Shown: piece after piece, positions 3,995 to 30,636 of the stretch | Position numbering within the stretch: position 1 is the first letter of the stretch | Layout: each line of letters opens with the position of its first letter | Source of the DNA: Actinomycetes bacterium | Lineage (GTDB): Bacteria > Actinomycetota > Humimicrobiia > JAHJRV01 | Assembly: GCA_023129485.1 (NCBI GenBank) | Contig: JAGMBY010000036.1 | Coordinates: 1 to 44,009, forward strand | Direction of reading: 5' to 3' | DNA: 44,009 nucleotides | Notes under the pieces: generated by a model | Told to the model about the DNA's origin: nothing | Database searches by the model: none | What the model saw: the letters and a program-made list of their open reading frames with translations, nothing else | Made by a program: the position numbers and the translations under genes

Positions 3995-4393
3995 CTCACT
4001 ACCTTCCTTTGAAAAATTCACTATTTATTATTTTTTTAAATACTTAATTCCTAAAACACAACATGTTTCTGAAAATATAAAATTTACTGACTATTATTTT
4101 TTATTTAATTGATGGGTTCAGAAAAGTTTTTATCTTTTTTATTAATATCAAATATTTTATCCTAATTTTGCTTATTTTTTCTGATATTTCAAAAAAATCT
4201 TTAAGCACGCTTTTTCTGATAACAAGTAGAATTATATGATTCTGATCAAAAATTTGATTAAAAATAGGAATTTGAAATATATTTAGAAATAACTTTTTTT
4301 AGAAAAGTTGTCTTTCTTGAATGGATAGAACTTTTAGGACGTAAATCACAGTCAAAAGATTAAAAATAACGGAGAAGAAGTCAATAAAATTAA

Positions 4394-5362
4394 TTAAGGT
4401 ACTCTGGATTCTAAAATCCAATATCTGATTTTATTTTCTGCTTTTATTCTTAACTCCTTTGCTAACTCTTCGGGAGATATTAGTTTTTCTAATGCTTTGT
4501 TCCATGCACCTGATTCAATATATTCATGTAATATTCTTGTTCTCTCTAAAATTATTGCATTTTCAGGGCTTACAAGTCTGCATGCTCCACAGAATAAACA
4601 CCATTTATCTTCTAATTTTAATTTATCTTTTTTCTCATCATACGTGATTGCCTTTGTAGGACATACATCAGCTGCAGCTTTAAACCTCTTAGGCATTAGT
4701 TCATAATTAATGGAGATTTTTCCTTCAATTGGTTTTGTAACTTTTATAGCATTATAAGGGCAGTCATAAACACATTTTGAGCAATATGTACACTTTTCTT
4801 TATCTATCTTTACATCTATTATCTTTTTTATTTTTTCTATTTTCTTCTTTTTCTCTTGAGATTTTGCTAACTTTCTTTCTTTCTCTGAACCTTCAGCCTT
4901 CTTTTCTTTTTTAGAAACTTCAATTTCTTTTTCATATATAACTTCTATAGCTTCAAATGGGCAACCTTCCTGGCAAGCAAGCTTACAATCAGGTATACAT
5001 TTTTTTACATCTACTTCAATCTCCCTAATTAAAGTAGGGAATGCTTCTAAATCTACTGAAGGGATTGTTTCTTTACCATTTACTTTTAATTTAAATGCGT
5101 TATATGGACAGAGGATTACGCATTCTCCACAATATATACATTTATCTGGGTCAGCATCAATTTTTGGTTTTTCAATTAATGAGCCATTCTCAATTTGTGC
5201 ATCTATTAAACTAAGAGCTTCCTTGGGACATATTATTGTACAGATCTCACATCCACAACATAAATCCTTATCAAGTGTTAGTGAATATTCTTTTGTAATG
5301 GTTTTCATCTCAAGTATTAACTTATCTCTCTTGTCTATTTTTACGGGAGTTCCCCTTTTCAA
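4394..5362 (-). CDS. polyferredoxin (FwdF/MvhB-like), about five [4Fe-4S] clusters
   Basis: Six ferredoxin motif slots (CCGCEICTIICP, CIYCGECVILCP, CIPDCKLACQEGCP, CTYCSKCVYDCP, degenerate ...DVCP, CLFCGACRLVSP); GGAGG RBS before TTG. Confidence 0.85.
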   Translation of the reverse strand: MKRGTPVKIDKRDKLILEMKTITKEYSLTLDKDLCCGCEICTIICPKEALSLIDAQIENGSLIEKPKIDADPDKCIYCGECVILCPYNAFKLKVNGKETIPSVDLEAFPTLIREIEVDVKKCIPDCKLACQEGCPFEAIEVIYEKEIEVSKKEKKAEGSEKERKLAKSQEKKKKIEKIKKIIDVKIDKEKCTYCSKCVYDCPYNAIKVTKPIEGKISINYELMPKRFKAAADVCPTKAITYDEKKDKLKLEDKWCLFCGACRLVSPENAIILERTRILHEYIESGAWNKALEKLISPEELAKELRIKAENKIRYWILESRVP

Positions 5363-5403
5363 ATTAAAACCTCCAAAAATAAAGATTTATTAATTTTTTA
5401 TAT

Positions 5404-5425
5404 AAGACCATTTTTATGTGGTCTT
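5404..5425. terminator. short hairpin between hdrB and polyferredoxin (attenuator or mRNA-stability element)
   Basis: AAGACCA / TGGTCTT 7-bp inverted repeat; no clear U-tract on the coding strand. Confidence 0.3.
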
Positions 5426-5501
5426 GTTAATTACTTTAAATTATTTCTTAAAATTTCTTAAATGATCTTGTTAATTAAAAAATATGATTTTATAAAGCAA
5501 T

Positions 5502-6428
5502 TTATTTAATTTTATTAAGTACTTGGTCCACTTTTACTATATGAAGATCAAAACCCAATTGATATGGATCAACTCCAAGTGCAAGACAAAGTAATTCCGG
5601 GTAATAAAATACTGGTAAATTATATTCTTTATTAAATCTCCTTTCTACTACTTTTTGATTTCTATCAAATTGTGTCTGACAAAATGGACATAATGTTACA
5701 ATACAGTCAACTCCTGATGTCTTGATATTATCTAAATTTTCTTTGGCAATATTTAATGATAAATCCATATTTACTCCCAGTAGAGGAGCTCCACAGCAGA
5801 ACATTTTTCTCATTCTGGGGAGACTGTCAGCGCCTAAGGCAACAATTAATTCATCTAAACTTTTTGGCTCTTCAGGATCATCAAAATTCATTACATCACT
5901 TGGTCTGACTAAATGACATCCATAAAATGCAGCTACTTTTAATCCATATAATGGTTTTTTTATCATATTAGTTATTTGATTAGTTCCTATATCTAAATAT
6001 AAAACCTCCGCGATATGTTTAACTATAGTATTTCCTTCATATTTCCTATTAAGAGGTAACAATATTTTATTTACTTTTTCTAAAAGCTCACTATCTTCTG
6101 ATAAAGCATGGCTCGTCTCTTTTAATGTCTCATAACATCCATTACAAAGAGTAAGGATGTCTTTTCCTATTTCCTGAGCAATACAGAGATTTCTTGCTCC
6201 CATAGAAAGCCATGTTAGCTCACTTATTGCTTTTATTCCTATTGGATCTGGACAACAGGAAAAATTGTCAGTTTCTGTAATTTTTATTTCTAAGATTTCT
6301 AATGCTCTTCTTGCAGCCACTTCCATATAAGGTAAGGAGCTTGGAATCAAACAACCTTTAAATAATAGATAATCCTTATTTTCTTTTTCTAAATTTGATT
6401 CTTCTTTAGTTGCTCTTGTCCTTTTCAT
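5502..6428 (-). CDS. hdrB: heterodisulfide reductase subunit B
   Basis: Two CCG domains: FKGC...FSCCP...LCNGC and FYGCH...MFCCG...LCPFCQTQFD; LPVFYYPELLCLALG. Confidence 0.92.
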   Translation of the reverse strand: MKRTRATKEESNLEKENKDYLLFKGCLIPSSLPYMEVAARRALEILEIKITETDNFSCCPDPIGIKAISELTWLSMGARNLCIAQEIGKDILTLCNGCYETLKETSHALSEDSELLEKVNKILLPLNRKYEGNTIVKHIAEVLYLDIGTNQITNMIKKPLYGLKVAAFYGCHLVRPSDVMNFDDPEEPKSLDELIVALGADSLPRMRKMFCCGAPLLGVNMDLSLNIAKENLDNIKTSGVDCIVTLCPFCQTQFDRNQKVVERRFNKEYNLPVFYYPELLCLALGVDPYQLGFDLHIVKVDQVLNKIK

Positions 6429-6459
6429 ATCTCATTTTATAATAAGTAGTAAAACTATT

Positions 6460-6972
6460 TTATTTTTTAATTTCTTTTTCTAAAAATAAATTGGTTCCAG
6501 TTTGTTTTAAAATCCTCTTTATATCTTTTTCTACAGAAGTTTGCACTAATTTTGGCAAATTTAACTGTTCTCTTCTTCTCTCAGTAGCCGAGCTGATTGA
6601 TGATATTCTGCCTGTTTTAGCTATCATTTTGAGTTCATTTACATATCCCTCCGGGATACCCCTTACTTTTGCTGCGATATTTTTTAATTTGACTATGATT
6701 TCAGAAACGGGTATCTTTTGAGGGCACCTTTCTAAACAAGTATGACAATAACAACAAAACCAGAGTAAATCATTATTAATTATTTCATCTATCTCTCCTC
6801 GAGAGAGTGCTAACATAATCTTTCTTGGATTAAAATTTTCATTTACCCAGGCTACCGGACACCCTCCAACACATGTACCACATTGATAGCAGACCTGAAC
6901 TTTCTTCTGAAAATCCTCTCCTCCAATTTCTTCTATCAACTTTTCCAAATCTTTTTCAATTTCCATATTCAA
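6460..6972 (-). CDS. hdrC: heterodisulfide reductase subunit C
   Basis: CYQCGTCVGGCP, FNPRKIM, WFCCYCHTCLERCPQ; start may be the ATG at 6966. Confidence 0.92.
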   Translation of the reverse strand: MNMEIEKDLEKLIEEIGGEDFQKKVQVCYQCGTCVGGCPVAWVNENFNPRKIMLALSRGEIDEIINNDLLWFCCYCHTCLERCPQKIPVSEIIVKLKNIAAKVRGIPEGYVNELKMIAKTGRISSISSATERRREQLNLPKLVQTSVEKDIKRILKQTGTNLFLEKEIKK

Positions 6973-7029
6973 ATCCCATAAAAATTTAAAACAATAAGTT
7001 ACTATTCATTTTTAAAATTCAAGTCATTT

Positions 7030-7095
7030 AGATTCTTCGCTGTGCTCAGAATGACAGCTTTTTTATTGTCACCCTGAGCGCAACGAAGGGTCTCA
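7030..7095. repeat. divergent pair of TGTCA-tagged REP-like hairpins
   Basis: 7030-7056 (-) TGTCATTCTGAGCACAGCGAAGAATCT; 7067-7095 (+) TGTCACCCTGAGCGCAACGAAGGGTCTCA. Confidence 0.8.
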
Positions 7096-7182
7096 TTAGT
7101 TCTTAGTTTATAGTTTAACTAAGAAATATTATTCATTGCTTATTTAGTCTTTATTAAGTAGAGATTTTATATACAAAGCTTC

Positions 7183-9651
7183 TTATGCCTCAATATCAAC
7201 TTTTTCATCAGCTAATAATATTTTAGCTACATCTGGATCTTCCCTAAATGTCTTTATTCTCTTTTCTAATTCAGGTTTTGCCTTTTCATTTTCTTCTTTT
7301 ATTCTTTCAATTCCTATTGATTTAAGAGTTTCACTCGATTCTTTCATAACTTTCGAGAAAGTCTGCCCTTCTGATGCGCTCATCCATTTAACACTGAATC
7401 TTTCTGGTGAAATACCAGCTCTCTCTAAAATCTTTGGCACAGCTTTTAGCCTTCTTTCAGCATGGTGCTGACCTGTTATGTAATGGCAATCCTGAGGATG
7501 GCATCCTGAAGCTAAAACCATTCCTGCACCTATTCTAAAAGCTTCATAAATAAATTTTCTATCTAATCTACCAGAGCACATAACCTTTATTATTCTGTTA
7601 TCAGGTGGATATTTCAGGTGGCTATTTCCAGCAGTGTCAGCAGCGCCAAAACTACACCAATGGCAGGTGAAGACTAATATCTTTTCTTCAGGTTTTTCTC
7701 TGAGTATAGCGTGAATTTGAGCTACAATCTGTACATCTGTATAGTGCAGCTGTGTTATTGCACCTTCCGGGCAATCAGCAACACAGGTTCCACATCCATG
7801 GCACTTTGCACCAATTACATATGCTGGTTTACCTTCAGGAGCGATAATTGCTCCATATGGACATCTTGTTTCACATATACCACACTTTTTCCTGACATTT
7901 CTACATTTATCAGCATCAACAAATGCTATTAGAGGTTCAATCTCCCACTCAGGGCTTGATAAAATTCTACTTGCTCTTGAAGAAGCAGCACTACCCTGAG
8001 CTACACTATAAGGTATGTCCTTTGGTCCTTGGGAAGATCCTGCTATAAACACACCCTCTGTTGGAGTATCTATAGGTTTCAATTTTGGATGACTCTCCAT
8101 ATAGAAACCACTTGGACCACTTGTTACTCCAAGTTTACTTCCTAATGTTCTAGAATCTGGTCGAGGCTCAGCTGCTGTTGACAGTATTACAATATCTACC
8201 TCATCTCTAATTGCTTTTCCTTTGGCCAAGTCTTCAGAATAAATGAATAGATTATGATTATTAGGATCTTGTGCAATTTCAGATGGTTTTCCCTGAATGA
8301 ACTTAATTCCTTCCTCTCTTGCTCTTCTATAAAACTCCTCATATCCCTTAGATGGAGTTCTAATATCCATATAATATATAGATATATCTAAATCTGGATA
8401 TTTTTCTCTTAAAATAAGTGAATTTTTAATTGTGTACATGCAACAGAATCCCGAGCAGTATTCATGAATATCATCTCTTGACCCAACACACTGGATAAAT
8501 GCCACTTTCCCTGGAGCTTTCATATCTGAGGGTCTGTATAGTTTTCCCATTGTTGGACCACTTTCATCAAGAAGTCTTTCTAACTCCAGTGCTGTCAAGA
8601 CATTTGGATATCTACCATATCCATACTGTTTTATAGGAGTTGGATCATAGATGTCATACCCAGTAGCAACTATAATGGTTCCAATATCAAGTTCTATTAT
8701 TTCTTCTTTTTGGGAAAAGTCTATAGCTTCAAGTTTGCCACACGCTTCAATACATTTAAAACATTCAATACATGCATCCATATCTATTGTATAGACCAAT
8801 GGAACTGCTTGAGCAAAAGGAACATATATGGCTTTTCTTGTCGTAGTACCTTCATCAAATTCATTCGGAACCTCAATAGGACAAACATCGACACATAAAC
8901 CACAACCATTACATTTCTCGGGTATCACAAAACGAGGCTTTTTCTTTACCTTTACCTTGAAGTTTCCAACAAAACCTCTTACTTCCTCTAATTCACTATA
9001 TGTGAGAACATTAATCTTCGGATGATGCCCCGCATCAACCATCTTGGGGGCTAAGATTCATATAGAACAATCCATGGTGGGGAATGTTTTATCGAGTTGT
9101 GCCATTCTACCACCAATTGATGGTTCCTTTTCAATGAGATAAGTTTCATACCCCATGTCCCCAAGGTCTAAAGCAGTGCTTATTCCAGCAATTCCAGCAC
9201 CAATTACTAAAGCTTTATTTGTTACTGGAACTTTTATGGTTTCGAGTGGTGCTAAATACCTTGCCTTAGCTACAGCGGAACGAATCAAATCAAATGCTTT
9301 CTCAAAAGCTTCTTCTGGATAATCAGGATGAACCCAAGTACAATGTTCTCTGATATTTGCCATTTCCATAAGGTATGGATTTAACCCTGCTTCATAAACA
9401 CACACTCTAAATGTAGGTTCATGTAATCTTGGAGAACAAGCTGAGACTACAACCCTGTTGAGGTTATATTCTTTTATGCTATCTTTTATCAAAACTTGAC
9501 CAGGGTCTGAACAAGCATATCCATGATCTTTAGCAACAACAACACCCGGAAGTTCTGATGCCCTCTCAGCCAATTTCTTGGGATCTATTACTCCTGCAAT
9601 ATTTGAACCACAATGGCATACAAAAACACCTATTCTTAAATCCTCTTCCAT
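7183..9651 (-). CDS. hdrA: HdrA-MvhD fusion with in-frame UGA (probable selenocysteine), 822 aa
   Basis: Track ORFs 9058-9651 and 7183-9042 are in frame: [27 protein letters not shown]. Motifs [32 protein letters not shown], two ferredoxin domains; C-terminal MvhD domain [10 protein letters not shown]...VMCSGR...GCHPQDCHY. Confidence 0.9.
9013..9057 (-). promoter_or_regulatory. putative bacterial SECIS hairpin directly 3' of the UGA
   Basis: mRNA UGA-AUCUUAGCCCCCAAGAUGGUUGAUGCGGGGCAUCAUCCGAAGAUU can pair AUCUU/AAGAU, GCCCC/GGGGC and CAA/UUG around a G-starting loop about 14 nt from the UGA. Confidence 0.55.
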
Positions 9652-9704
9652 ACTCTCCTTTTAATGAATATGTTTAATAAAACTTTTATTATAAATTAGT
9701 TAGA

Positions 9705-10199
9705 TTAGCTCTTTACTAATTCCTCCAATAGTTTTCCTACAACTTCTCTTCTCATCTTTTGTGCAACTTCTTCTGGGGTTGAGAGTGAGAGAGCTTCCTT
9801 TGGACAGAATTCAACACACTTTGGCTTTTCTAAGTCTTTACATAAATCACATATTCTAACTGTTTTTTCTGCAGCATCTAATGTAATAGCCCCAAATTCA
9901 CACGCCTCTATACACCAACCGCATCCATCACACTTATCATCATCAATAATTATTATTCCTGTTTCCTCACTCTGGGTGAGTGCTTTATGAGGACATGATG
10001 CAACGCATGGTGGGTCTTCACAAAGTCTACACGCAACTGACATTGTTAAGACTGGTTCTATCCTAACATTACGTATCCTTGATTTAAGTGGATTAAACGC
10101 TCCTGTTTTTTCAAGTGAACAAACAAGTTCACACCATTGACATCCAACACATTTATCTGGATCACAAACTATATACCTATGTTTTCCTAAGTGCTCCAT
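9705..10199 (-). CDS. 4x[4Fe-4S] electron-transfer subunit (DmsB/AorA-like)
   Basis: CVGCQWCELVC, CRLCEDPPCVASCP, CDGCGWCIEAC, CDLC...PKCVEFCP; TAATG overlap with the aor stop. Confidence 0.9.
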   Translation of the reverse strand: MEHLGKHRYIVCDPDKCVGCQWCELVCSLEKTGAFNPLKSRIRNVRIEPVLTMSVACRLCEDPPCVASCPHKALTQSEETGIIIIDDDKCDGCGWCIEACEFGAITLDAAEKTVRICDLCKDLEKPKCVEFCPKEALSLSTPEEVAQKMRREVVGKLLEELVKS

Positions 10200-12040
10200 T
10201 AGACTCCTACCTCCTTTGCAATATCATCTAAGCCTAATTCAACCAACTTCTCCTTGGGTATCATACCATCCTTTGTCCATCCTCTCGCTTTATAATAAGC
10301 ATCCTTTAAGAACTCTAAGTCTTTTTTCTTGATTAAATGTCCCTTTGCAACTCCCTCTGGAATAGGGTCTTTCATAATTCTTGGAGGAAGAGTATCATCT
10401 TTTCTTGTCCAACCCTCTCTTATATTAAATGCTTTCTTAAGATTCCAGATTCTTTCTCCAGTCTTTTTCAACTCATCTGGTGTCATCTCTATACCTGTTG
10501 TGAGAGTATATAAATCGCTTGCTTCCTTATAATAATCCTCGAAGCATCCTCTGATGAATTTACAGAGTACAAATGAATCAAAAGTGGCAGCATAATTTTC
10601 TCTTTCTGCAGCATATTTACCTTTTTCTTTATCATATGTGAATCTATCAGTCCATCCTTTTATGTCAGCCTCATAAGCTCCAGACCTGTTATGACAAGGA
10701 CCTCTTGTACCCACAGCACATCCTAAAGCAAAAGTTTTAAGTCCTCTTGGGTCATATCCTGCACATTCCAATCCTTTCACATTCATTGCAAAATGTTTGG
10801 AACCCTTACCAATTTTTTCTGAGGCTCTCTTAGTTCCCTCTGCCAAAAGGTCACCAATTCCTTCTCTTTTGGCAATCTTCTCAATTAACTTTATATATGG
10901 CTCATGATTTCCAAATTTTATATCTAATCCACCAGTGTCTTTTTTAGTAAATATACCTTTCTCATAACATTCCATAGCCCATGCAACTGTTACACCAGTA
11001 CTCATAGTATCCATTCCATAAAAGTCACATAATTCACAAGCCTTGATAATTGCTGGCATATAATCAATACCACAACATGGTCCTAAAGCAAAAAGAGATT
11101 CATATTCCACTTTGGTTCTCGCATCTTTATAAGGTCCATCCTCAACCTTGGCAATATGTTCACAAGCTATGGGACATCCAGAACATGCTACAGTTTTTTC
11201 TACATAATGTTCATGCAGATATTCACCACTTACCAACTCTGCTTTATCCCATGTTGCTGCTTGGAAATTTTTGGTTGGTAAAGTGGCTAACCTATTCATA
11301 ACAAGTACATTTGCGGGGGTACCAAGGATTCTATATTTTTCAGTTGGTGTTCCCTGTGCTATTTTCATGAGATCAAAACATTTTTTAGATAGTTCTTCTG
11401 GGTTAGCTACGTTTATAGACTTTGATCCCCTAAGTGCAATGGCTTTTAAATTCTTTGAGCCCATAACTGCTCCCTGACCTGTTCTTCCAGCTTTTCTTCC
11501 TCTATCATTAGAAATACAAGCAAACTTTACTAGATTTTCTCCTGCCAATCCTATAGTACATACCCTTACATTTTGATCCCCTATTTCATCTCTTATTGCT
11601 TCTTCAGTTTCAAAGCAACCTAGTCCAGCAAGATGTTTAGCATTTTTAAAATGAACATCATCATCATCAATAAAAAGATAAATTAAATCTTCGCTTTTTC
11701 CTTTTATAACAATGCCATCATATCCTGCTCTCTTTATCGTTTGAGACCAATAACTTGATGACAAAGAATCTCCAAGAAATCCTGTAAGTGGTGATTTTGA
11801 AGCTATTCCATGTTTTGTTCCAACTGGTACTATTGTTCCACCAAAAGCACTTGCTGAAAAAGTTAAAACATTCTCAGGGCTTAAGGGGTCAATACCTGGT
11901 TTAATATTGTCATAAAGTAATTTTGAAGCTAAACCTACACCACCTAAGTATTTTTTTAGGAACTCCTCACTAACAGTTTGAACAGATGTTTCCTTACTGG
12001 AAAGATCAATATGTAGGATTCTCCCGCTATAAGAGTACAT
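10199..12040 (-). CDS. aor: tungsten-containing aldehyde:ferredoxin oxidoreductase family protein
   Basis: GRILHIDLS, KSPLTG, GAVMGSKNLKA, CSGCPIAC, EYES, CDFYGMDTMSTG, RGPCH, YYKARGW; GGAGG RBS. Confidence 0.93.
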   Translation of the reverse strand: MYSYSGRILHIDLSSKETSVQTVSEEFLKKYLGGVGLASKLLYDNIKPGIDPLSPENVLTFSASAFGGTIVPVGTKHGIASKSPLTGFLGDSLSSSYWSQTIKRAGYDGIVIKGKSEDLIYLFIDDDDVHFKNAKHLAGLGCFETEEAIRDEIGDQNVRVCTIGLAGENLVKFACISNDRGRKAGRTGQGAVMGSKNLKAIALRGSKSINVANPEELSKKCFDLMKIAQGTPTEKYRILGTPANVLVMNRLATLPTKNFQAATWDKAELVSGEYLHEHYVEKTVACSGCPIACEHIAKVEDGPYKDARTKVEYESLFALGPCCGIDYMPAIIKACELCDFYGMDTMSTGVTVAWAMECYEKGIFTKKDTGGLDIKFGNHEPYIKLIEKIAKREGIGDLLAEGTKRASEKIGKGSKHFAMNVKGLECAGYDPRGLKTFALGCAVGTRGPCHNRSGAYEADIKGWTDRFTYDKEKGKYAAERENYAATFDSFVLCKFIRGCFEDYYKEASDLYTLTTGIEMTPDELKKTGERIWNLKKAFNIREGWTRKDDTLPPRIMKDPIPEGVAKGHLIKKKDLEFLKDAYYKARGWTKDGMIPKEKLVELGLDDIAKEVGV

Positions 12041-12255
12041 TATCTACCTCCTTGTATGTTAAATGATTTAATTAATTTAAAGATAATTAGTTGTAATTAA
12101 TTAATAATAAAAAAAATTTAAATATTGTAAAGTGGATTTTAAAATTGAATTTTAAGTTTTGCTAGTTAGTTTAGCCAAAATAAATTTTATTTAAAATTTG
12201 ACTAAATTAATTTTATTTAATGATTTATCTAAACTAAATTAAATTGAATTAAATC

Positions 12256-12534
12256 TTATCCACCAACAGTGACAAATAGTAAAAGTAACTTATCTCCTTT
12301 CTTTAATTTATGTTCTAAATTATTTATTGTATGTCTTCCATCTAAATTGAACATATAGGGAGGAATAGTTTTTAGAGTTTTTTCTTTGATTACTTTTCCT
12401 GAGAGTTTAGGGTATTTCTTTACTAATTCATCGGTTAGGTTTTTAAGAGTATATTTATCTTTTAGGTTTATTTCAACTATTTTTTCTCCGACAATCTGTT
12501 TTGCAAGTCCAAAAAGTTCAACACTTATTTTCAT
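12256..12534 (-). CDS. moaD: MoaD/ThiS-family sulfur carrier
   Basis: 92 aa, N-terminal ISVELFG, C-terminal VGG; upstream of aor. Confidence 0.85.
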   Translation of the reverse strand: MKISVELFGLAKQIVGEKIVEINLKDKYTLKNLTDELVKKYPKLSGKVIKEKTLKTIPPYMFNLDGRHTINNLEHKLKKGDKLLLLFVTVGG

Positions 12535-12622
12535 TTTTTACTTTTTTATATTTTAATTTTTATAAAGGATACTTATAAAACTAAACTTATTTTATTAAAT
12601 TATCATATTATATAAAGGTATC

Positions 12623-12755
12623 TGTCATTCTGAAGGAGCGACAGCGACTGAAGAATCTCATTAGATATATTAAAAAGTCTAACAGAATTTAAATATTTTC
12701 ATTAAAATTACTTATGAGATTCTTCCCCTTCGTTACACTCAGGGTCAGAAAGACA
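12623..12755. repeat. convergent pair of TGTC-tagged REP-like hairpins (REPIN/BIME-like)
   Basis: 12623-12660 (+) TGTCATTCTGAAGGAGCGACAGCGACTGAAGAATCTCA; 12715-12755 (-) TGTCTTTCTGACCCTGAGTGTAACGAAGGGGAAGAATCTCA. Confidence 0.85.
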
Positions 12756-12919
12756 AAATAATATAAATTTTCAAAGAATAAAATATAAAAAGTGTTAGCC
12801 TAACTAGTTAACAATACAAATTATTGTATTTAATTGAATTATAACGGATATTGAAATAAACATTAAAAAAGAAATTAACACACCAGTTTAAGATATAATA
12901 ATTTGTTAATTTTGTCAAA

Positions 12920-12955
12920 AACTTGCAGAAACAACAGAACTTGCAGGAACAATAA
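12920..12955. repeat. 18-bp tandem duplication
   Basis: AACTTGCAGAAACAACAG / AACTTGCAGGAACAATAA, 15/18 identical. Confidence 0.6.
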
Positions 12956-12959
12956 AACC

Positions 12960-13012
12960 TATAGTAGCAAAATGACAATGTCTCCTTTGGGCAAAATAGA
13001 AATGTCCTCTTT
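12960..13012 (+). mobile_element. possible orphan IS end with 24-bp-period subterminal repeats (IS1202/ISNCY-like)
   Basis: GCAAAATGACAATGTCTCCTTT (12967) and GCAAAATAGAAATGTCCTCTTT (12991), 17/22 identical; no transposase nearby; family assignment from memory only. Confidence 0.35.
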
Positions 13013-13155
13013 TACTAAAGTTAAAATATTTGGTAATAAAGATTTAATATCTTAAATATAATGATAGTGGAATTTTGTTTAGTAAAAATTAAATAAGATA
13101 TTAAATGTATATATAATTAAAAAATTTGGATCACATAAAGGAAAATGGAGGTTAG

Positions 13156-13629
13156 ATGTATATTTCGGTGATAGGAGCTAGTAAGTGTGGTAAAGATTTA
13201 TATAAATTGGCTTATGATGTGGGAAGAGAAATTGCAAAGAGAAAAGCCATACTTATATGTGGAGGATTAGGGGGAGTGATGGATGCATCTGCAAAAGGAG
13301 CGAAAGAAGTAGGAGGCATGACAGTTGGTATATTACCCGGAGATACTAGAATAGGTGCCAGTAAATATCTTAATGTATCACTTCCAACTGGAATGGGAGA
13401 AGCAAGGAATGTATTAGTTATAAAAGCAGCAGATGTTGTTATTGCAATTGGAGGTGAATATGGGACACTATCTGAAATTGCACACGCTCTTAAAATGAAT
13501 ATTCCAGTAGTTGGACTAAAAACGTGGGATATAGGCAAAGATGAGTTTGGTGTTTCAAGAATAATAAAAGTAGATGACCCAATAGCTGCTGTAGAAAAAG
13601 CATACAAATTAGCAAAAAGTAAGGGTTAA
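13156..13629 (+). CDS. TIGR00725 / LOG-like Rossmann-fold protein
   Basis: ISVIG, ICGGLGGVM, TGMGEARN, IGGEYGTLSEIA; GGAGG RBS. Confidence 0.9.
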   Translation: MYISVIGASKCGKDLYKLAYDVGREIAKRKAILICGGLGGVMDASAKGAKEVGGMTVGILPGDTRIGASKYLNVSLPTGMGEARNVLVIKAADVVIAIGGEYGTLSEIAHALKMNIPVVGLKTWDIGKDEFGVSRIIKVDDPIAAVEKAYKLAKSKG

Positions 13630-13694: not shown

Positions 13695-14501
13695 TCATCT
13701 GATAAGACATTTTTGTACATAATTCTCTAATATCCTTTTAAATTTTAGCATCTGGTTATTGGAGAATTGACTTTCTTTTAAAAATTCTAAATCTAGTGTT
13801 TTTGTAGGATAGAATTTTTGCAAAATAAATAGTTTTGCCCCAGCAACAAGTTTACCTATTTTATGGATTTCATTTTTATCATGAAATTTTGGTAAAACTG
13901 TTGTTCTAAATTCATATTGAATTTTTTTATTAATATTAACTTTTATGTCAGCATTAACCTTTGTATTTGCATTAACTTTTTTATTCAGATATTCTAAATT
14001 AGTTTTTTTATTTAAAATACCCCTTGTACCCTGGCTCTTATCAATATCAAGAATTATTTTAACACTTTCTTTTATATTTTCTAAGTTAACCTTGATTCCA
14101 GCTATCTCTTCGTATTTATCCAGTGATCCTTTAATATCCATAGCCAAGTAGTCTAAAAGATTATCCTTAATTAACTTACTTAAGATATGAGGATTGGTTC
14201 CATTTGTGTCTAATTTAACCAAAAAACCCATTGATTTTATTTTTGAAATAAATTGATAAAGATCCTTATGTAAACTTGGTTCACCACCAGTTATGACAAC
14301 AGCATCTAATTTTTTCCTTCTGTTTTTTAAAAATTCAAATACAGCTTTTTCTGGGATTTTTTCTGGATAAATCTTTGGATTGACTAATTCTGGATTATGA
14401 CAAAATGGACATCTAAAATTGCAGCCAATAGTAAAAATTATGGCACTAATTTTATGAGGATAATCAATGAGTGAAAACTTTTGCAGTCCACCAATAACCA
14501 T
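13695..14501 (-). CDS. nrdG: anaerobic ribonucleotide reductase activating enzyme (radical SAM)
   Basis: GCNFRCPFCHN, ITGGEP, KLDTNG, AMDIKG, YEFRTT; directly downstream of nrdD. Confidence 0.92.
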   Translation of the reverse strand: MVIGGLQKFSLIDYPHKISAIIFTIGCNFRCPFCHNPELVNPKIYPEKIPEKAVFEFLKNRRKKLDAVVITGGEPSLHKDLYQFISKIKSMGFLVKLDTNGTNPHILSKLIKDNLLDYLAMDIKGSLDKYEEIAGIKVNLENIKESVKIILDIDKSQGTRGILNKKTNLEYLNKKVNANTKVNADIKVNINKKIQYEFRTTVLPKFHDKNEIHKIGKLVAGAKLFILQKFYPTKTLDLEFLKESQFSNNQMLKFKRILENYVQKCLIR

Positions 14502-14605
14502 TTCATTTAAACAATCTTAATTTAAAAGAATTTAATATAGATATTTTTAAGGAATTATTATAATTTTTTTTTATCAAAGAAATGTTATATTTCAAGACCT
14601 AACCC

Positions 14606-17600
14606 CTATAATTTAAAGGTTTTGCGGTCTTTGAATTCTGATCTCTTTCCCCTATTCCATTGGCTAACAGGTCTTATATATCCAACCACTCTTGAATAAA
14701 CTTCTGTAGTTGCTCCACATTCTGGACAAGTTTCATGTTCACCCGAAATGTAACCATGTTGTTGACATATACTAAAGGTAGGGGTAATTGTAAAATAAGG
14801 AAGTCTATAATTTTCTGCAATCTTTTTTACTAATATTTTAGAACTCTCACCATCAGGCAATTTTTCTCCAACAAAGCCATGAAAAACAGTACCACCAGTA
14901 TATTTGGTTTGAAGTTCATCTTGCAAATCTAAGGCTTCAAAGATGTCATCAGTATATCCAACAGGAAGCTGTGTTGAATTTGTATAATAAGGAGCTGCTT
15001 CATTTTTAAAAGCTTCTTCATTTGCGCATATAATCTCCAGGAATTTTTCCTTATCAGTTTTTGCAAGTCTAAAGGTTGCACCTTCCCCAGGTGTTGCTTC
15101 AAGATTATAAATATTGTCAGTTTCATTTTGATAATCCATAAGTTTTTCTCTCATAAAATCCAAAACTCTTATAGAGAATTCTCTACCTTCTTTAGTTGTA
15201 ATATCTTTTCTTAAAAAGTTTAGGCATGCTTCGTTCATTCCTATTAAACCAATTGTTGAAAAATGGTTTCTCCAATAACCACCAAATCTTTTTTTAATTG
15301 AATTAAGATAATATTTTGCAAATGGATAAAGATTATTTTCTGTGAATCTTTCGAGTATTTTTCTCTTAATCTCAAGACTTTTTTTTGCTAAATCCATTTT
15401 TTCAGAAAGTCTATTAAGGAATTCCTTTTTTGTTTTTGAGAAGTAACCAATTCTTGGCATATTAATTGTTACTACTCCAATACTACCAGTTAGGGGATTT
15501 GCTGCAAAAAATCCACCACCTCGTTTGCGCAGTTCTCTCTGGTCGATCCTGAGATGGCAACACATGCTACGGGCATCTTCGGGTTTCATGTCAGAATTTA
15601 TAAAATTAGCAAAATATGGTGTACCATATTTAGAAGTCATATTCCATATCGGCTCAAGCACTGGATTATCCCAATCAAAATCTTTGGTAATGTTGTATGT
15701 AGGAATTGGAAAAGTAAATACTCTTCCTTTGGCATCACCTTCCGTCATGACTTCTGCAAATACTTTATTGAAAAGGTCTATCTCTTTTTGAAATTCACCG
15801 TATTGTGCATTCTGTATTTTTCCACCAATAATAACATGCTCATTAGCAATAATGTCTGGAGGTACTAAATCCATTGTTACATTAGTAAACGGGGTATTGT
15901 GAAAAAGAAGAAGTCCAGCACCGCCAGAGAAATTCTCCTGGGGTAAATCAACAGAAAGATCATACTCAAATTCTTTCTCATACTTAAATTCATCCACCCG
16001 ACTGCAAATCCTAGCAGTAAAATCACCCACAGAGTAAGCCTCTTTTCTTTTTTTGTTTTTAAAAATCCTCAAAGTATATTGATTACTCCATTCTTTTTTT
16101 CTTCCTTCTTCTTCGTAAACACTAAATTTATAACCGTTCATACTAAGAAGCAAAGAAAGTCCAGCTGAAAGTTTTTTTGAAGTTGTTGACAAATCCCAGT
16201 ATTTCTCATATTCGGATCCATCGCCGGACAGGATGTTTTTAAGAAAAGTTTCTTGAAGTTTAGGCTCCAGTTGATAAATAAACCAGGGAACCTCTTTTTG
16301 TGTACTATAAATACCACAAACTGCAACCACCAAAGCAGCTAAAATACCATTACCAGAAATTTTGTAAACAGGCTTGGTTTTAGTTCCTTTTTGAGAATAA
16401 CCCTTTGATTTTTCTATTCTTCCAAGGATTCCTAAACTTTTTAAAATTCTTTTAATCTCCTTAGGCTCACTCTGGGAAATAAAAAATGAGTTACTGATCT
16501 CAGCATGACCCTCAGCCACATACCAACCACAAATTTTAACAAAATTTAATAGGTCTTTTCCTTGCAAAAATCTTGAAATCTTAATCTTACTATTTCTAAG
16601 GTAAAATCCTAAGGCATCATTTTCTTCCAGAAACTTCAAAAAGATATCAAGTCTGACAATTTTTTTTCTCTTCCAATCATTCCATACACCCCGGTCATGG
16701 AGATTAAATTGAATATAAAATGGAGTTATTCCCCCATAATACTCTTTTACTTTTTCTTTTAATTTATCAATTGTTCCCCCGGGAACATTTACATAAACCT
16801 TTCGCCAGAGATATGGAAATTCCTGAAGAATTTCTAAAAGATCAAGTTTTTTCTTATTTCCTTCATTCTTCACTGATTTAATAGCTATAAAGCTGTTATT
16901 GGGCTTTAATTTGCTATTGAAATGTTCATCTCTTACCTCTTGGGCTGAAAAAGGTTTAACAATAAATTCTCCATTGAGTTTTTCAAATCTAAAAAGTGAA
17001 TGGGCTGGAGAAACAGAAGCAGTTCCTTTACTTGTCCTGATTTTAACAAACTTACTCCCTTTAGGTACTCTATGTCTGATAAAAGCCTTAACTTTTACCC
17101 AGACCGCTTCACCCTTTTGATTAAAGGACAAAACCTTGAAATCATCATCATTCTCAATAGCAAAACTACCAGGATTATCTTCCAAAACCTGGTGGGATTT
17201 TTTTTCAAATTGGGAATCTACTAACCCGCCAATTTTTTTTATTTTAATCTTTCCATTCTCTCTAATCAGCACCAGCTCATCCCAGGTTAAACTTTGAAAA
17301 CCTACTCGAGTAGGAATATTTATATTAAACAAAAATTCCTGTATAGCTTGCTTTATTTCTCTATAAGACAATTTGTCATATCTAATAAAAGGGGCTAAAT
17401 ACGTGTCTACTGAACTAAATGCCTCTGCACCTGCAGTCTCACCTTGTAAGGTATAAAAAAAGTTCACTATCTGACCCAAAGCAGCACGAAAATGTTTTGC
17501 TGGCTTACTCTCAATCTTTCCTGGAACCCCACCAAATCCACGAATTAACAGGTCTTTTAAATCCCATCCCGCGCAGTACGGTGCAACCAAGGCTAGGTCA

Positions 17601-18091
17601 TGTATATGAAAATCTCCACAAACATGTGCCTTTCTTACATCTTTAGGATAAATTTTATATAACCAATAATGTGCAGAGATTACTGAGGCAATATGATTAT
17701 TTAATCCCTGAAGAGAATAAGTCATATTACTATTCTCATTAACTCTCCAATCTTCGTTATTAATATATTCATCTACTAAATCAAGGCTTATAGTCTTTTT
17801 TAAATCACGAATTCTGGCGTGTTGGTCTCTGTAGATAATATATGCCTTTGCTGTTTTTATATAACGGGATTCAATCAGAACTGTTTCTACTATATCTTGA
17901 ATCTGCTCAACAGTTGGGGTGTCATCTCTGATAATTTCTTTTGCCCTGTCTAAGACTTTATCGGAGAGCTTTTTTGAGGTATCTAACCCAAATTCTCTTG
18001 TTTCTTGACCTGCTTTGAAAATTGCATCAGTAATGTTTCTTTGATTAAATTTGACTATTCTCCCGTCTCTTTTTTTGATTTTTTTAAACAT
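14606..18091 (-). CDS. nrdD: class III ribonucleoside-triphosphate reductase, intein-containing
   Basis: N-terminal ATP cone (KKRDGR), HIHDL, YCAGW, FTFPIPTYN, SMCC, EATPGEG, CQQH...CPEC, glycyl-radical motif YSRVVGYIRP. Confidence 0.95.
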   Translation of the reverse strand: MFKKIKKRDGRIVKFNQRNITDAIFKAGQETREFGLDTSKKLSDKVLDRAKEIIRDDTPTVEQIQDIVETVLIESRYIKTAKAYIIYRDQHARIRDLKKTISLDLVDEYINNEDWRVNENSNMTYSLQGLNNHIASVISAHYWLYKIYPKDVRKAHVCGDFHIHDLALVAPYCAGWDLKDLLIRGFGGVPGKIESKPAKHFRAALGQIVNFFYTLQGETAGAEAFSSVDTYLAPFIRYDKLSYREIKQAIQEFLFNINIPTRVGFQSLTWDELVLIRENGKIKIKKIGGLVDSQFEKKSHQVLEDNPGSFAIENDDDFKVLSFNQKGEAVWVKVKAFIRHRVPKGSKFVKIRTSKGTASVSPAHSLFRFEKLNGEFIVKPFSAQEVRDEHFNSKLKPNNSFIAIKSVKNEGNKKKLDLLEILQEFPYLWRKVYVNVPGGTIDKLKEKVKEYYGGITPFYIQFNLHDRGVWNDWKRKKIVRLDIFLKFLEENDALGFYLRNSKIKISRFLQGKDLLNFVKICGWYVAEGHAEISNSFFISQSEPKEIKRILKSLGILGRIEKSKGYSQKGTKTKPVYKISGNGILAALVVAVCGIYSTQKEVPWFIYQLEPKLQETFLKNILSGDGSEYEKYWDLSTTSKKLSAGLSLLLSMNGYKFSVYEEEGRKKEWSNQYTLRIFKNKKRKEAYSVGDFTARICSRVDEFKYEKEFEYDLSVDLPQENFSGGAGLLLFHNTPFTNVTMDLVPPDIIANEHVIIGGKIQNAQYGEFQKEIDLFNKVFAEVMTEGDAKGRVFTFPIPTYNITKDFDWDNPVLEPIWNMTSKYGTPYFANFINSDMKPEDARSMCCHLRIDQRELRKRGGGFFAANPLTGSIGVVTINMPRIGYFSKTKKEFLNRLSEKMDLAKKSLEIKRKILERFTENNLYPFAKYYLNSIKKRFGGYWRNHFSTIGLIGMNEACLNFLRKDITTKEGREFSIRVLDFMREKLMDYQNETDNIYNLEATPGEGATFRLAKTDKEKFLEIICANEEAFKNEAAPYYTNSTQLPVGYTDDIFEALDLQDELQTKYTGGTVFHGFVGEKLPDGESSKILVKKIAENYRLPYFTITPTFSICQQHGYISGEHETCPECGATTEVYSRVVGYIRPVSQWNRGKRSEFKDRKTFKL
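15896..17293 (-). mobile_element. intein with LAGLIDADG homing endonuclease (residues 267-732, 466 aa)
   Basis: RVGFQ|SLTWDELV ... VSPAHSLF (block B) ... CGWYVAEGH and ILSGDGS (endonuclease blocks) ... YDLSV...NF...LLFHN|TPFTN; removal restores RVGFQTPFTN. Confidence 0.93.
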
Positions 18092-20940: not shown

Positions 20941-22050
20941 ATGGAATATAGATTAAATTTAAAAGAGCTTTCTAAGATAAGGACTGAGAAGTACCCACTA
21001 ATAACTTTTTATTTCACAGCCTCCTCACCTTTCGAATGGAAAGAGGAGGCAAATATTTTCCTGAAATCAATGGCATCAAAACAAGAGGAAAGACTCAGTA
21101 AAGAACTATTGGATGGATTTAGATCTGATGTTGAGAAAATAAAAGATTATATAAATTATAAGCTTGGGAAATCGGTAAGAAGTTTAGTATTTTTTACATG
21201 TGAAAATGAAAACTTATTTAAGTTTTATAAAGCGCCCTTTCCAATAACTACCCTATTTTTTGTAGGAAATACCCCCTATTTAAAACCATTAGCAGGAGCA
21301 CTAGATAATTATGGGAAATATATCTTGGCTATACTGCATATTGATTATTCATCAATTTATATAATTGATAGAACTGATATTGTGGAGTGGATTTCTAAAG
21401 AGGATAAAATCCCAGTAAAAACTAGAAAAGCGGGTTGGAAGAATTTAGCTAAACCAAGAGTTGAGAGGAGAAGAGGAGAGTATATTAAAAAACATTATAA
21501 GGATATAGCCAATATAGTGAGAAATAGTATGGATAAAGATATTAGTAGAATAATAATTGCAGGTACAAAGAAGAATGTGAATATGTTTATAAACTATCTT
21601 CCAAAGCACCTAAAAGATATTGTTTCAGCTACATTTCAATTTGATACTCATTATAATGATTTCAAGATTATAGAGAAATCAATTGAAGTGCAGCTTGAAA
21701 GTGAAAGAAGAGATGATAAGAGATTAATAGAACAATTAAAGCAATTAGGAAGAGAAAAGATAGCCGTAGGACTTTATCAGGTTCTTTTAACATTACAAAG
21801 AGGACAAATTGATAAATTAATTATTCATCACAAATTTCAAGAATCCGGATGGCTTTGCAATAATTGTGGTTATCTAGCAAGTGGCGGTTCTAAAATCTGC
21901 CCTATGTGCAAAGTTGAGATGAGCAGAGTAAAAGATATAGTAGATGAAGTTGTAAATAAAGCAATAGAATTTGATATTGATGTTGATTTTGTATCAGAAA
22001 ATGGATTTATTGATAATTTTGGAGGAATGGCTGCAATTTTGAGGTATTGA
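20941..22050 (+). CDS. bacterial eRF1/pelota-like protein (baeRF family) with zinc ribbon
   Basis: VGNTPYLKPL, RIIIAG, CNNCG...CPMC, C-terminal GGMAAILRY typical of eRF1 domain 3; GGAGGGTG RBS. Confidence 0.8.
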   Translation: MEYRLNLKELSKIRTEKYPLITFYFTASSPFEWKEEANIFLKSMASKQEERLSKELLDGFRSDVEKIKDYINYKLGKSVRSLVFFTCENENLFKFYKAPFPITTLFFVGNTPYLKPLAGALDNYGKYILAILHIDYSSIYIIDRTDIVEWISKEDKIPVKTRKAGWKNLAKPRVERRRGEYIKKHYKDIANIVRNSMDKDISRIIIAGTKKNVNMFINYLPKHLKDIVSATFQFDTHYNDFKIIEKSIEVQLESERRDDKRLIEQLKQLGREKIAVGLYQVLLTLQRGQIDKLIIHHKFQESGWLCNNCGYLASGGSKICPMCKVEMSRVKDIVDEVVNKAIEFDIDVDFVSENGFIDNFGGMAAILRY

Positions 22051-27327: not shown

Positions 27328-27380
27328 ACTACTTTCTCAAAAAATGACATAATAATTAACATAAATAATGTCATAAAAAA

Positions 27381-27433
27381 TGTCATTCTGACCCTGACTT
27401 TGAGTGTAACGAAAAGGAAGGGGAAGAATCTCA
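27381..27433 (+). repeat. TGTCA-tagged REP-like hairpin with three nested units
   Basis: TGTCA-TTC-TGA-CCC-TGA-CTT-TGA-GTGTAAC-GAA-AAG-GAA-GGG-GAA-GAA-TCTCA. Confidence 0.85.
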
Positions 27434-27551
27434 TTAAAAAGAATATATTTTAATTAAATTTTTAAAAACAATATTAATTAAAACTTTAAAAATTCTAGAA
27501 CTTTATAATTATTATTATTGCTAAGAAATTCTTAAAAAGGAGGATTTTAAA

Positions 27552-28409: not shown

Positions 28410-28467
28410 AAATTTTATAAATAATATAATTCCAAAATAAAAAAAATATTTAAAATGGAGGTAAATT

Positions 28468-30585: not shown

Positions 30586-30636
30586 AAAGAGTATTAATTT
30601 AAAATATTAATTTAATAATAAATTTTTGGGGGTAAT

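Follow-up and report, generated by a model that had tools for sequence, protein, structure and literature searches.

A conserved gene cluster pairing a tungsten-type aldehyde oxidoreductase with a selenocysteine-type HdrA2 flavoprotein: a candidate aldehyde-oxidizing Hdr complex in an Actinomycetes genome

The stretch of DNA analyzed here (the window; 44,009 nucleotides, forward strand of contig JAGMBY010000036.1, assembly GCA_023129485.1) derives from an Actinomycetes bacterium and contains a block of seven genes, arranged head to tail on the minus strand from position 12534 to position 4394 (Table 1). The block combines the large and small subunits of an aldehyde:ferredoxin oxidoreductase (AOR; AorL and AorS) with proteins of the heterodisulfide reductase (Hdr) family, namely HdrA fused to an MvhD domain, HdrC and HdrB, and with a polyferredoxin and a MoaD/ThiS-like protein. 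The common orientation of the seven genes described in the initial annotation was borne out, as were the TAATG overlap of the aorL stop and aorS start codons and the 53-bp spacer between aorS and hdrA; the other intergenic gaps measure, in gene order, 215, 210, 31, and 139 bp. Likewise, genes for a hydrogenase, a formate dehydrogenase (Fdh), or Flx are absent from the block by Pfam domains, in agreement with the earlier statement that the cluster has no donor module.

The source assembly comprises 1.17 Mb in 103 contigs, has approximately 30% G+C, and is 90% complete; the window is its contig C34, and all gene absences reported for the genome refer to this 90%-complete assembly. The host was correctly taken to be a bacterium, because the window also encodes a D-Ala-D-Ala ligase and an extracytoplasmic function (ECF) sigma-70 factor and because the nearest AorL loci (93% amino acid identity) come from metagenome-assembled genomes (MAGs) titled Candidatus Humimicrobiia and Actinomycetes. 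Cold-seep, marine-sediment, and subsurface metagenomes of nine studies contain DNA that matches the block almost exactly; one of these studies may be the source of the window. Scans for promoters (53 promoter-like sites versus 45.2 +/- 5.0 in shuffled sequences) and terminators (three terminator-like sites, all on the plus strand) were uninformative in DNA of 30% G+C. An Rfam scan of positions 4000-13200 with E values up to 1 returned zero matches and hence no molybdenum or tungsten cofactor (Moco/Wco) riboswitch and no curated selenocysteine insertion sequence (SECIS) family.

Table 1. Genes, recoding elements, and terminal modules of the aorLS-hdr cluster; positions are those of the window, and L numbers denote related loci.
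Feature	Position or loci	Strand	Basis
moaD/ThiS-like gene, 92 aa	12256..12534	-	Pfam ThiS
aorL/WorL, 613 aa	10199..12040	-	AFOR_N + AFOR_C
aorS/WorS, 4x[4Fe-4S], 164 aa, C-terminal helix	9705..10199	-	Fer4_11 and related families
hdrA::mvhD, HdrA2 type, 822 aa, predicted selenocysteine at codon 198	7183..9651	-	Flavin adenine dinucleotide (FAD), Fe-S, fused MvhD [2Fe-2S] domain
In-frame TGA, predicted selenocysteine (DCSI-U-ILAPKM)	9058..9060	-	Codon comparison
SECIS-like hairpin, 8 pairs, 3-nt loop	9020..9040	-	18 nt past TGA
hdrC, 2x[4Fe-4S], 170 aa	6460..6972	-	Fer4_17 + Fer4_8
hdrB, two CCG domains, 308 aa	5502..6428	-	Pfam, 5odc_B alignment
FmdF/FwdF-like polyferredoxin gene, 322 aa, about five [4Fe-4S]	4394..5362	-	Solved-structure relatives
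Module HdrC + HdrB	Window and 11 loci: L001, L002, L023, L025, L027, L033, L055, L057, L058, L063, L067
Mvh module: HdrC-like, extra ferredoxin domain fused to second MvhD, then MvhG, MvhA	16 loci, mostly Anaerolineae
Fdh module: HdrC-like::MvhD fusion, then formate-dehydrogenase-like molybdopterin protein	L065 (Chloroflexota)
Flx-like module: HdrC-like, MvhD, FrhB-like, Fer4_22, NAD-binding/2Fe-2S proteins	12 Chloroflexota loci and an unchecked L025 tag
HdrA + polyferredoxin only	Five archaeal loci: L024, L029, L031, L032, L068

AorL matched the AFOR_N (244 bits) and AFOR_C (442 bits) domains over its full length and aligned end to end with the AOR of P. furiosus (1aor; 451 bits), WorL of Acetomicrobium mobile (9mqx_D; 405 bits), and AorB of A. 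aromaticum (8c0z_A; 360 bits), while the match to BamB (4z3w_A; 261 bits) was partial and covered residues 2-420. The 1aor alignment columns CxxCxxxC, EYES, GxCH, and DSxxxC, which we take to hold the [4Fe-4S] ligands and the active-site Glu and His, are kept in AorL. By sequence, AorL is therefore classed as the large subunit of a tungsten-type aldehyde:ferredoxin oxidoreductase, with both the metal and the aldehyde substrate being predicted. AorS contains 17 Cys, 16 of which are invariant among 44 orthologues and thus fit four [4Fe-4S] clusters, as expected from its original description as a 4x[4Fe-4S] subunit. Its best relatives with solved structures are WorS (9mqx_E; 100.6 bits), the small subunit of WOR5 (96 bits), and AorA (8c0z_C; 79.6 bits); BamC reached only 37.7 bits. 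The MoaD/ThiS-like protein passed the Pfam ThiS cut-off (22.8 versus 22.5 bits) and fell below that of the NCBIfam MoaD model TIGR01687 (46.9 versus 49.5 bits). A similar open reading frame (ORF) lies directly upstream of aorL in many bacterial loci, and the protein probably acts in maturation of the pterin cofactor rather than as a subunit of a complex.

A search for fusions yielded 177 longer relatives of AorS. Nearly all of the 120 that were listed are fusions or fragments with IorA domains (PF01855 and/or PF02775), most of them about 729 aa in length, and the closest, several of which are named Bathyarchaeia, share 49-60% identity over about 80% of AorS. The partner of the AorS-like domain is the alpha subunit of a thiamine pyrophosphate-dependent indolepyruvate:ferredoxin oxidoreductase; i.e., the domain forms a built-in wire on a 2-oxoacid oxidoreductase. 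MvhD (PF02662) occurred in none of the 120 listed proteins, and the fusion search leaves the wiring undecided.

Under translation table 11, hdrA::mvhD is called as two ORFs of 197 and 619 aa that are split by an in-frame TGA. The earlier reading of a single hdrA::mvhD gene therefore stood only with the TGA translated as selenocysteine (Sec), a codon that the initial annotation had missed. The read-through protein of 822 residues passed the NCBIfam model NF040770 for the MvhD-fused HdrA2 subclass (1101.6 bits; cut-off, 1100), and its residues 3-652 aligned with HdrA of Methanothermococcus (5odc_A) at 856 bits. The FlpD domain (the MvhD part) spans residues 658-780, and five of its Cys are invariant in all 44 aligned orthologues.

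The TGA codon aligns with a Cys of 5odc_A inside a 13-residue stretch that is otherwise identical. Among 49 related hdrA genes covering the site, 36 carry TGA, comprising all the Chloroflexota and Actinomycetota loci; the other 13 carry TGC or TGT and are archaeal, with the exception of one record titled Patescibacteria. Downstream of the TGA, a hairpin was paired in 272 of 272 cells across 34 distinct sequences. Seven of its pairs are invariant, synonymous third positions included, while a bulged third position between pairs varies freely; the remaining pair shows a compensatory C-G to U-A change, solely in the window. As 19 of 500 shuffles reached the observed pairing values, the frozen synonymous sites provide the stronger argument for the hairpin. 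On the basis of these sequence comparisons, the in-frame TGA is predicted to encode selenocysteine with the aid of a SECIS-like hairpin, which flags a systematic annotation error in which selenocysteine-containing hdrA genes are called as two ORFs.

Components of the selenocysteine machinery were recovered in part. SelD was detected (360 bits), SelA was not found in the assembly, and no SelB match exceeded the cut-off in the genome; a 190-bit match to SelB, in a frame of 411 aa, probably represents EF-Tu. The 34 tRNAs detected by Aragorn cover 17 amino acid types and do not include tRNA-Sec. As the tRNA set is itself incomplete, the missing SelA, SelB, and tRNA-Sec are best read as an assembly gap and not as evidence of absence. 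Indeed, SelA is present in three of three genomes of the same genus.

HdrC contains two full CxxCxxCxxxC motifs and scored 99 bits against TIGR03290, below the cut-off of 160. In HdrB, Pfam detected the CCG domain twice, and the alignment with 5odc_B (270 bits) covered the full length with both CCG motif sets aligned; the score of 318 bits against the NCBIfam equivalog was below its cut-off of 345. The polyferredoxin carries 21 Cys, in five sets of four; among proteins with solved structures, it is closest to FmdF from the Fdh-Hdr-Fmd complex (7bkb_K; 135 bits), FwdF (5t5i_F; 116 bits), and MvhB (74 bits). The C-terminal helices of the polyferredoxin (4394-4570) and AorS (9705-9800) share a short Q-x-(K/R)-R-R-x-x-V pattern, which resembles the WorA/WorS helix "plug" of 9MQX; the signal is weak, and the likeness is a lead only (hhalign; 11 columns, E value of 0.019, probability of 2.5%).

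The pairing of aorLS with hdrA::mvhD is not restricted to the window. A scan of one genome per species identified 407 AorL relatives, the best 80 loci of which were kept, and HdrA::MvhD was encoded near aorL in 53 of these 80, within the DNA around each. Adjacency of aor and hdr genes in other genomes had been set beforehand as a refuting test, and it proved to be conserved in two bacterial phyla and several archaeal lineages. The bacterial Hdr-linked loci belong to Anaerolineae and other Chloroflexota, two Actinomycetota MAGs, and the record titled Patescibacteria; the archaeal ones belong to Bathyarchaeia, Brockarchaeota/Thermoproteota/Nitrososphaerota, and Woesearchaeota/Nanoarchaeota (DPANN). 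Bacterial loci are collinear and those of Thermoproteota divergent, L023 and L027 have a convergent arrangement, and the DPANN clusters begin with hdr. As gene order differs between groups, the linkage does not rest on one frozen operon. Of the 53 Hdr-linked loci, 40 contain a polyferredoxin match of at least 200 aa; among the 13 that do not, 12 end before the expected place of this gene, and L067 has a short match only. In L006 (9417-15362; Bathyarchaeia, same AorL clade), aorL and aorS are followed by a gene for a fumarate-reductase/succinate-dehydrogenase-type flavoprotein (584 aa) in place of HdrA and then by the polyferredoxin gene, with a 2Fe-2S (Fer2_3) gene upstream.

In a quick AorL tree of 84 rows, all Hdr-linked rows and the window fell into one clade of 67 rows (Shimodaira-Hasegawa-like approximate likelihood ratio test [SH-aLRT] support of 100), and a careful tree of 58 of those rows, from which 26 near-duplicates had been dropped, gave the Hdr-linked clade a support of 100/100. 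The five other AOR paralogues of this genome and 12 loci (L069-L080) were placed outside the clade, and HdrA was found in none of these 12 loci. Inside the clade, 15 rows had no detected HdrA. Several of these loci are cut by contig ends, and three (L017, L022, and L050) have full flanks. The HdrA tree (44 rows) recovered the same main groups as the AorL tree, and the per-gene phylogenies proposed earlier as a check thus agree. In the HdrA tree, the genus of the window is sister to all Chloroflexota (SH-aLRT support of 99); together they form the selenocysteine clade, which is sister to the Cys-bearing L023 and L027. The archaeal ancestry suggested by the initial annotation is supported in part, by the 856-bit match of HdrA to Methanothermococcus and by the position of Bathyarchaeia-type clusters as sister to the bacterial clade, but Chloroflexota provide the nearest relatives from beyond the genus, and neither tree is rooted. 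Within the class, three of the four other genomes in the genus contain orthologues with >90% identity (the exception is 65% complete). None of 56 genomes of other genera does; the best match there, to other paralogues, had 45% identity. Such patchiness is consistent with acquisition by transfer.

Conservation extends to AorLS, HdrA::MvhD, and the polyferredoxin, while the terminal module is swapped between loci (Table 1; assignments are from Pfam domains and counts from locus tags). The alternative modules occupy the place of HdrB in the window, fused or adjacent to the HdrC-like wire, and the Flx-like unit occurs in the Anaerolineaceae version of the cluster. All four terminal modules are two-electron sinks that aldehyde electrons can reach downhill. 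In L065 (4092-8905), the formate-dehydrogenase-like protein is split into two ORFs (5404-6282 and 6295-7983), possibly at another selenocysteine codon.

In the rest of the genome, no competing partner for the Hdr proteins was detected. The sole NiFe hydrogenase (contig C14, L081 468-9829) is of the Bfu type, with two NuoF-like partners, one NuoE-like partner, and one NuoG/molybdopterin-like partner, and its locus adjoins a formate/nitrite transporter. FdhA was not found in the genome, where the NuoG-like protein on C14 is the only molybdopterin-domain match; an Mvh-type hydrogenase, an Flx-type donor, and an F420 ligase were not found either, and HdrB of the window is the only CCG protein. Contig C40 (L082 483-6970) carries an acetogen-type methylene-tetrahydrofolate reductase cluster with an hdrA-like gene for a double flavoprotein (1048 aa), mvhD, metF, and a further flavoprotein gene. 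The genome contains four medium-chain (ADH_N) alcohol dehydrogenases (ADHs) and no detected iron-containing ADH (Fe-ADH), an inventory that is not decisive for the direction of the reaction. Six AOR-family genes are distributed over five contigs of this 1.17-Mb genome, two of them in tandem on C43.

Contigs 90-95% alike to the block, and hence from a relative, were present in two metatranscriptome libraries of one study. A single piece spans aorL and aorS (9695-11725), and coverage of hdrA extends through the TGA (8063-9659). The libraries also contain the junction between the end of hdrA and the beginning of hdrC, where the spacer differs from that of the window, and the polyferredoxin gene (4757-5379). 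The parts without cover (hdrB, most of hdrC, and moaD) and the breaks at 9659/9695 carry no meaning, and two of the contigs, X17 and X18, are probably DNA.

We give about even chances to the reading that the block encodes one soluble complex, in which AorLS is wired to the HdrA2-type HdrA::MvhD, HdrC, HdrB, and the polyferredoxin and in which aldehyde oxidation reduces a disulfide. The initial annotation had already proposed a joint AOR-Hdr machine with an unspecified disulfide, and this is the best reading in view of the conserved linkage, the agreeing trees, and the lack of a rival Hdr partner (Mvh, FdhA, or second HdrB) among the genes found. In such a complex, an aldehyde would be oxidized to the acid at the AorL pterin site, and the low-potential electrons would pass from AorS to the polyferredoxin, which would replace free ferredoxin. 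They would then enter HdrA by its ferredoxin arm and exit via FAD and HdrC to HdrB, where a disulfide, probably other than CoM-S-S-CoB (the heterodisulfide of coenzymes M and B), would be reduced at the two non-cubane clusters. As the drop in potential would be large, the HdrA flavin and the MvhD domain may bring a third partner (ferredoxin or a hydride carrier) into the reaction through bifurcation or confurcation.

This wiring departs from the original proposal, which placed the AOR in the donor position on the MvhD arm; weak model support and solved precedents point instead to the polyferredoxin. That the polyferredoxin links AorS to HdrA is suggested by its FmdF-like character and constant co-inheritance, by its retention with AorLS in L006, where HdrA is lacking, and by a model of the complex. 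Prediction of AorS with the polyferredoxin and the MvhD domain gave a result rated "weak support," with a score of 0.37 (runs of 0.37, 0.39, and 0.37), a partner predicted local distance difference test (pLDDT) value of at least 78, and agreement between runs in at least 76% of contacts, while the controls scored 0.00 (best of 3), including the one in which the polyferredoxin was replaced. In the calibration, whose counts are only rough for a three-chain job with custom alignments, 58 of 80 solved complexes and 2 of 110 mismatches attained the pass mark; those that did so with scores of 0.60 or under were only 7 of the 80 solved complexes and both mismatches.

Solved systems provide the precedents. 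In these, HdrA has an MvhD input arm, a high-potential output through HdrC/HdrB, and a low-potential output through a ferredoxin domain; in the class II benzoyl-CoA reductase (BCRII), the AOR-family module BamBC sits on the low-potential inserted ferredoxin domain of HdrA, and BamF (MvhD) is the input (10.64898/2026.04.10.717634). Furthermore, methanogen polyferredoxins carry the low-potential electrons of Hdr to the pterin enzyme Fwd/Fmd (PMC13518236, PMC13580544). For the HdrA2 subclass, recombinant HdrA2B2C2 has been shown to pass electrons from reduced ferredoxin to heterodisulfide (PMC5296606).

Aldehyde oxidation is the favored direction, since it requires no component missing from the block and since all four alternative terminal modules are downhill sinks. 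The acid/aldehyde couple has a potential of about -580 mV, and that of H2 is -414 mV. A physiological aldehyde couple near -500 mV is given in papers on tungsten-containing oxidoreductases (WORs) (PMC13328260). The same direction is favored by the characterized enzymes nearest to AorL, which oxidize aldehydes (PMC13328260), and by the acceptance of reduced-ferredoxin electrons by recombinant HdrA2B2C2 (PMC5296606).

Several observations weigh against an aldehyde-oxidizing complex of this kind. MvhGA, FdhA, and Flx are classical electron donors of Hdr and not sinks, and the favored scheme leaves the fused MvhD domain, with its five invariant Cys, without a partner. The 210- and 215-bp gaps inside the block allow separate transcripts, and the RNA-library contigs represent presence in a library, neither a single transcript nor a strand; the libraries may contain DNA. 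A model pass at 0.37 is, by the calibration, more often wrong than right unless the contact was likely beforehand. The hdrA-like/mvhD/metF cluster on C40 lacks hdrBC, and HdrBC of the window might serve or be shared with it. As candidates for the disulfide system, DsrC and ComA were not found in the genome. Finally, the pterin enzymes that occupy the ferredoxin arm in BCRII and in the Hdr-Fmd/Fwd supercomplexes act as reductases (10.64898/2026.04.10.717634), and the same wiring could therefore mean acid reduction.

Three other readings account for parts of these data. AorS could dock on the fused MvhD domain, with the FAD bifurcating aldehyde electrons to the disulfide and, via the polyferredoxin, to ferredoxin. 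This arrangement would match the gene order aorL-aorS-hdrA::mvhD with its 53-bp spacer, use all three canonical HdrA arms, and give a partner to the MvhD domain, which otherwise lacks one and is retained, with its five invariant Cys, by all 44 aligned orthologues; MvhG and FdhB dock on MvhD in methanogens. However, the acid/aldehyde potential (about -580 mV) lies below that of ferredoxin, making aldehyde an odd "middle" donor, archaeal aorLS genes are divergent or convergent with hdr and have the polyferredoxin gene abutting aorL, and the only model score obtained depended on the polyferredoxin. The 0.00 of the control that kept AorS and the MvhD domain is no evidence against a contact between the two. 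Even with the precedent of bifurcating WorABCSL, which couples the oxidation of aldehydes to joint reduction of NAD and ferredoxin (PMC12318220), docking on MvhD appears unlikely. Alternatively, the machine could run reductively, as BCRII and Hdr-Fmd do, with a donor encoded outside the block feeding HdrA via MvhD or FAD, high-potential electrons going to a disulfide at HdrB, and low-potential electrons going via the polyferredoxin and AorS to an acid that is reduced to the aldehyde without ATP. The roles of BamBC as low-potential output and BamF as input in BCRII (10.64898/2026.04.10.717634) and the direct acceptance of hydride from F420H2 by Methanosarcina HdrA2 (PMC5296606) agree with this, as do the FmdF/FwdF-like nature of the polyferredoxin, the classical Hdr donors (hydrogenase, Fdh, and Flx) in the block of Chloroflexota relatives, and the four ADH_N dehydrogenases, which could take the aldehyde onward. 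On the other hand, the window contains no donor, searches of the genome detected no donor of the Mvh, Fdh, or Flx type, no F420 ligase, and no Fe-ADH, the donor-bearing Chloroflexota variants lack HdrB and hence a high-potential acceptor, and the characterized enzymes nearest to AorL oxidize aldehydes (PMC13328260). We regard a reductive machine as distinctly improbable.

The remaining alternative is that there is no joint complex, AorLS being an ordinary ferredoxin-linked WOR and HdrA2B2C2-polyferredoxin a separate ferredoxin:disulfide reductase, or HdrBC being lent to the C40 module; the genes would then be neighbors because both systems handle reduced ferredoxin. Two-subunit WorLS enzymes are common (16% of WORs; PMC13328260), the block contains gaps of 210-215 bp, the C40 metF-mvhD-hdrA-like cluster lacks hdrBC while the HdrB of the window is the only CCG protein found, and L017, L022, and L050 belong to the AorL clade and lack HdrA despite full flanks. 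Against this, the linkage is kept across phyla, domains, and gene orders, with a dedicated AorL clade and matching AorL and HdrA trees, and the terminal module swaps while AorLS, HdrA::MvhD, and the polyferredoxin stay together. Separate enzymes thus seem a very doubtful explanation, and the joint aldehyde-oxidizing complex is preferred here.

Among described enzymes, BCRII of Geobacter metallireducens (Bam[(BC)2DEFGHI]2) is, in the literature accessible to us, the only described and solved machine that joins an AOR-family tungsten subunit to an HdrA-type flavoprotein (10.64898/2026.04.10.717634). The predicted complex resembles it in having an AOR-family subunit with an Fe-S partner, an HdrA-type flavoprotein, an MvhD-like adaptor (with selenocysteine in the adaptor of BCRII), and an HdrBC-like output (10.64898/2026.04.10.717634). 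However, AorL is of the AOR type (1aor; 451 bits) and not of the BamB type (partial match; 261 bits), AorS has four clusters in contrast to the three of BamC (37.7 bits), and HdrA is single and close to methanogen HdrA (856 bits) whereas that of BCRII is permuted and double. Furthermore, HdrB and HdrC are separate genes with intact CCG motifs, a polyferredoxin is present, and the Bfu-type input BamGHI and the fused BamD are absent from the block by Pfam. The WorL/WorS pair of A. mobile WorABCSL (PDB 9MQX, Class IV; PMC12318220) is also similar to AorL (405 bits) and AorS (100.6 bits); WorS has four clusters and a C-terminal helix, and an aldehyde-oxidizing module sits on a flavin-based bifurcating core. 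That core is BfuABC (NuoE/F/G-like, flavin mononucleotide, and NAD), in contrast to HdrA2::MvhD, HdrC, HdrB, and polyferredoxin (FAD and disulfide) in the window. WorABC/BfuABC genes were absent from the block and window in a domain scan, which places the cluster outside Class IV.

The Hdr components themselves are closest to methanogen supercomplexes (MvhAGD-HdrABC, 5ODC; Fdh-Hdr-Fmd, 7BKB; Hdr-Vhu-Fwd, 9SW6), with HdrA at 856 bits and HdrB at 270 bits, and the FmdF/FwdF-like polyferredoxin would likewise link Hdr to a tungsten/molybdenum pterin enzyme. As in Methanosarcina acetivorans HdrA2B2C2 (PMC5296606), HdrA is MvhD fused, and it passes the HdrA2 model when the TGA is read as Sec; this predicted Sec corresponds to the Cys of 5odc_A. 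Unlike the methanogen systems, the window has a bacterial host, ComA, F420 ligase, Mvh, and Fdh were not among the genes found, and the pterin enzyme is an aldehyde oxidoreductase instead of a formylmethanofuran dehydrogenase. FlxABCD-HdrABC of sulfate reducers shares a bacterial HdrABC, an MvhD-type adaptor, and an unassigned or protein disulfide; Flx genes are lacking in the window, however, DsrC was not found in the genome, and Flx-Hdr contains nothing equivalent to AorLS or the polyferredoxin.

The literature searched, outside supplements and subscription journals, did not yield a paper describing an AOR-HdrA cluster; such neighborhoods may appear in SI Fig. S1 of PMC12318220 or among the supplementary tables that accompany the WOR classification. 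The accessible text of the June 2026 classification distinguishes five WOR classes, of which Class IV is defined by WorABC; Hdr-like subunits are mentioned for benzoyl-CoA reductase alone, and an Hdr-type aldehyde WOR is not listed (PMC13328260). The WorABCSL paper describes types BF, N, and M and a quinone-linked type U in its clade 87 (PMC12318220). In the accessible parts of papers on Hakuba actinobacteria, Asgard archaea, Culexarchaeia, and the Chloroflexi supergroup, AOR and Hdr are mentioned separately and not together, and the word "aldehyde" does not occur in those of the HdrA2 paper (PMC5296606). The AOR-Hdr pairing, as predicted from gene content, is thus a WOR wired to an Hdr-type core that is conserved, widespread, and missing from the enzyme classifications searched.

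Other genes of the window may be mentioned briefly. An anaerobic ribonucleotide reductase, NrdD (1161 aa), is encoded on the minus strand at 13695-18091 and is followed by a radical-SAM activase-like gene; a LAGLIDADG-like segment at residues 615-682, between the ATP-cone and the NRDD domain, is probably an intein. On the plus strand, positions 26149-32727 hold a complete butyrate-type set (thiolase, 3-hydroxyacyl-CoA dehydrogenase, enoyl-CoA hydratase, acyl-CoA dehydrogenase, EtfB, and EtfA), in which EtfA has an N-terminal 2x[4Fe-4S] ferredoxin domain. This set is a candidate for a second bifurcating system in the window. A bacterial eRF1-like protein (baeRF family 10 with eRF1 domain 3) is encoded at 20941-22050 on the plus strand and adjoins a PKD-domain protein.

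Known HdrA bifurcation draws on hydrogen, formate, NAD(P)H, and F420H2 as inputs and serves heterodisulfide, ferredoxin, CO2 fixation, and benzene-ring reduction as outputs. If the proposed complex is real, its aldehyde/carboxylate arm would extend this list by an organic couple that is among those of lowest potential. It would also be a sixth architecture for tungsten oxidoreductases beside the five classes of the 2026 classification, among which only Bfu-type members are described as bifurcating in the accessible text (PMC13328260). A broader reading, which we hold tentatively and at clearly less than even chances, is that the AorLS-polyferredoxin-HdrA2 core represents an undescribed and widespread class of tungsten complexes with plug-in modules, bifurcating or confurcating around the acid/aldehyde couple; the HdrBC form of the window would then be near the ancestral bacterial version, acquired across domains together with the selenocysteine HdrA. 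Such a class could recover the energy that is lost when ordinary AORs oxidize aldehydes, or could run backwards and reduce carboxylic acids with no need for ATP. The cluster is carried by uncultured fermenters and syntrophs that are abundant in sediments and digesters, namely Anaerolineae, Bathyarchaeia, DPANN, and a cold-seep actinobacterial genus. As six AOR-family genes are kept in a genome of 1.17 Mb, the complex may matter for the balancing of ferredoxin, hydrogen, formate, and thiols in these organisms, and it would offer a testable route to ATP-free acid-to-aldehyde chemistry.

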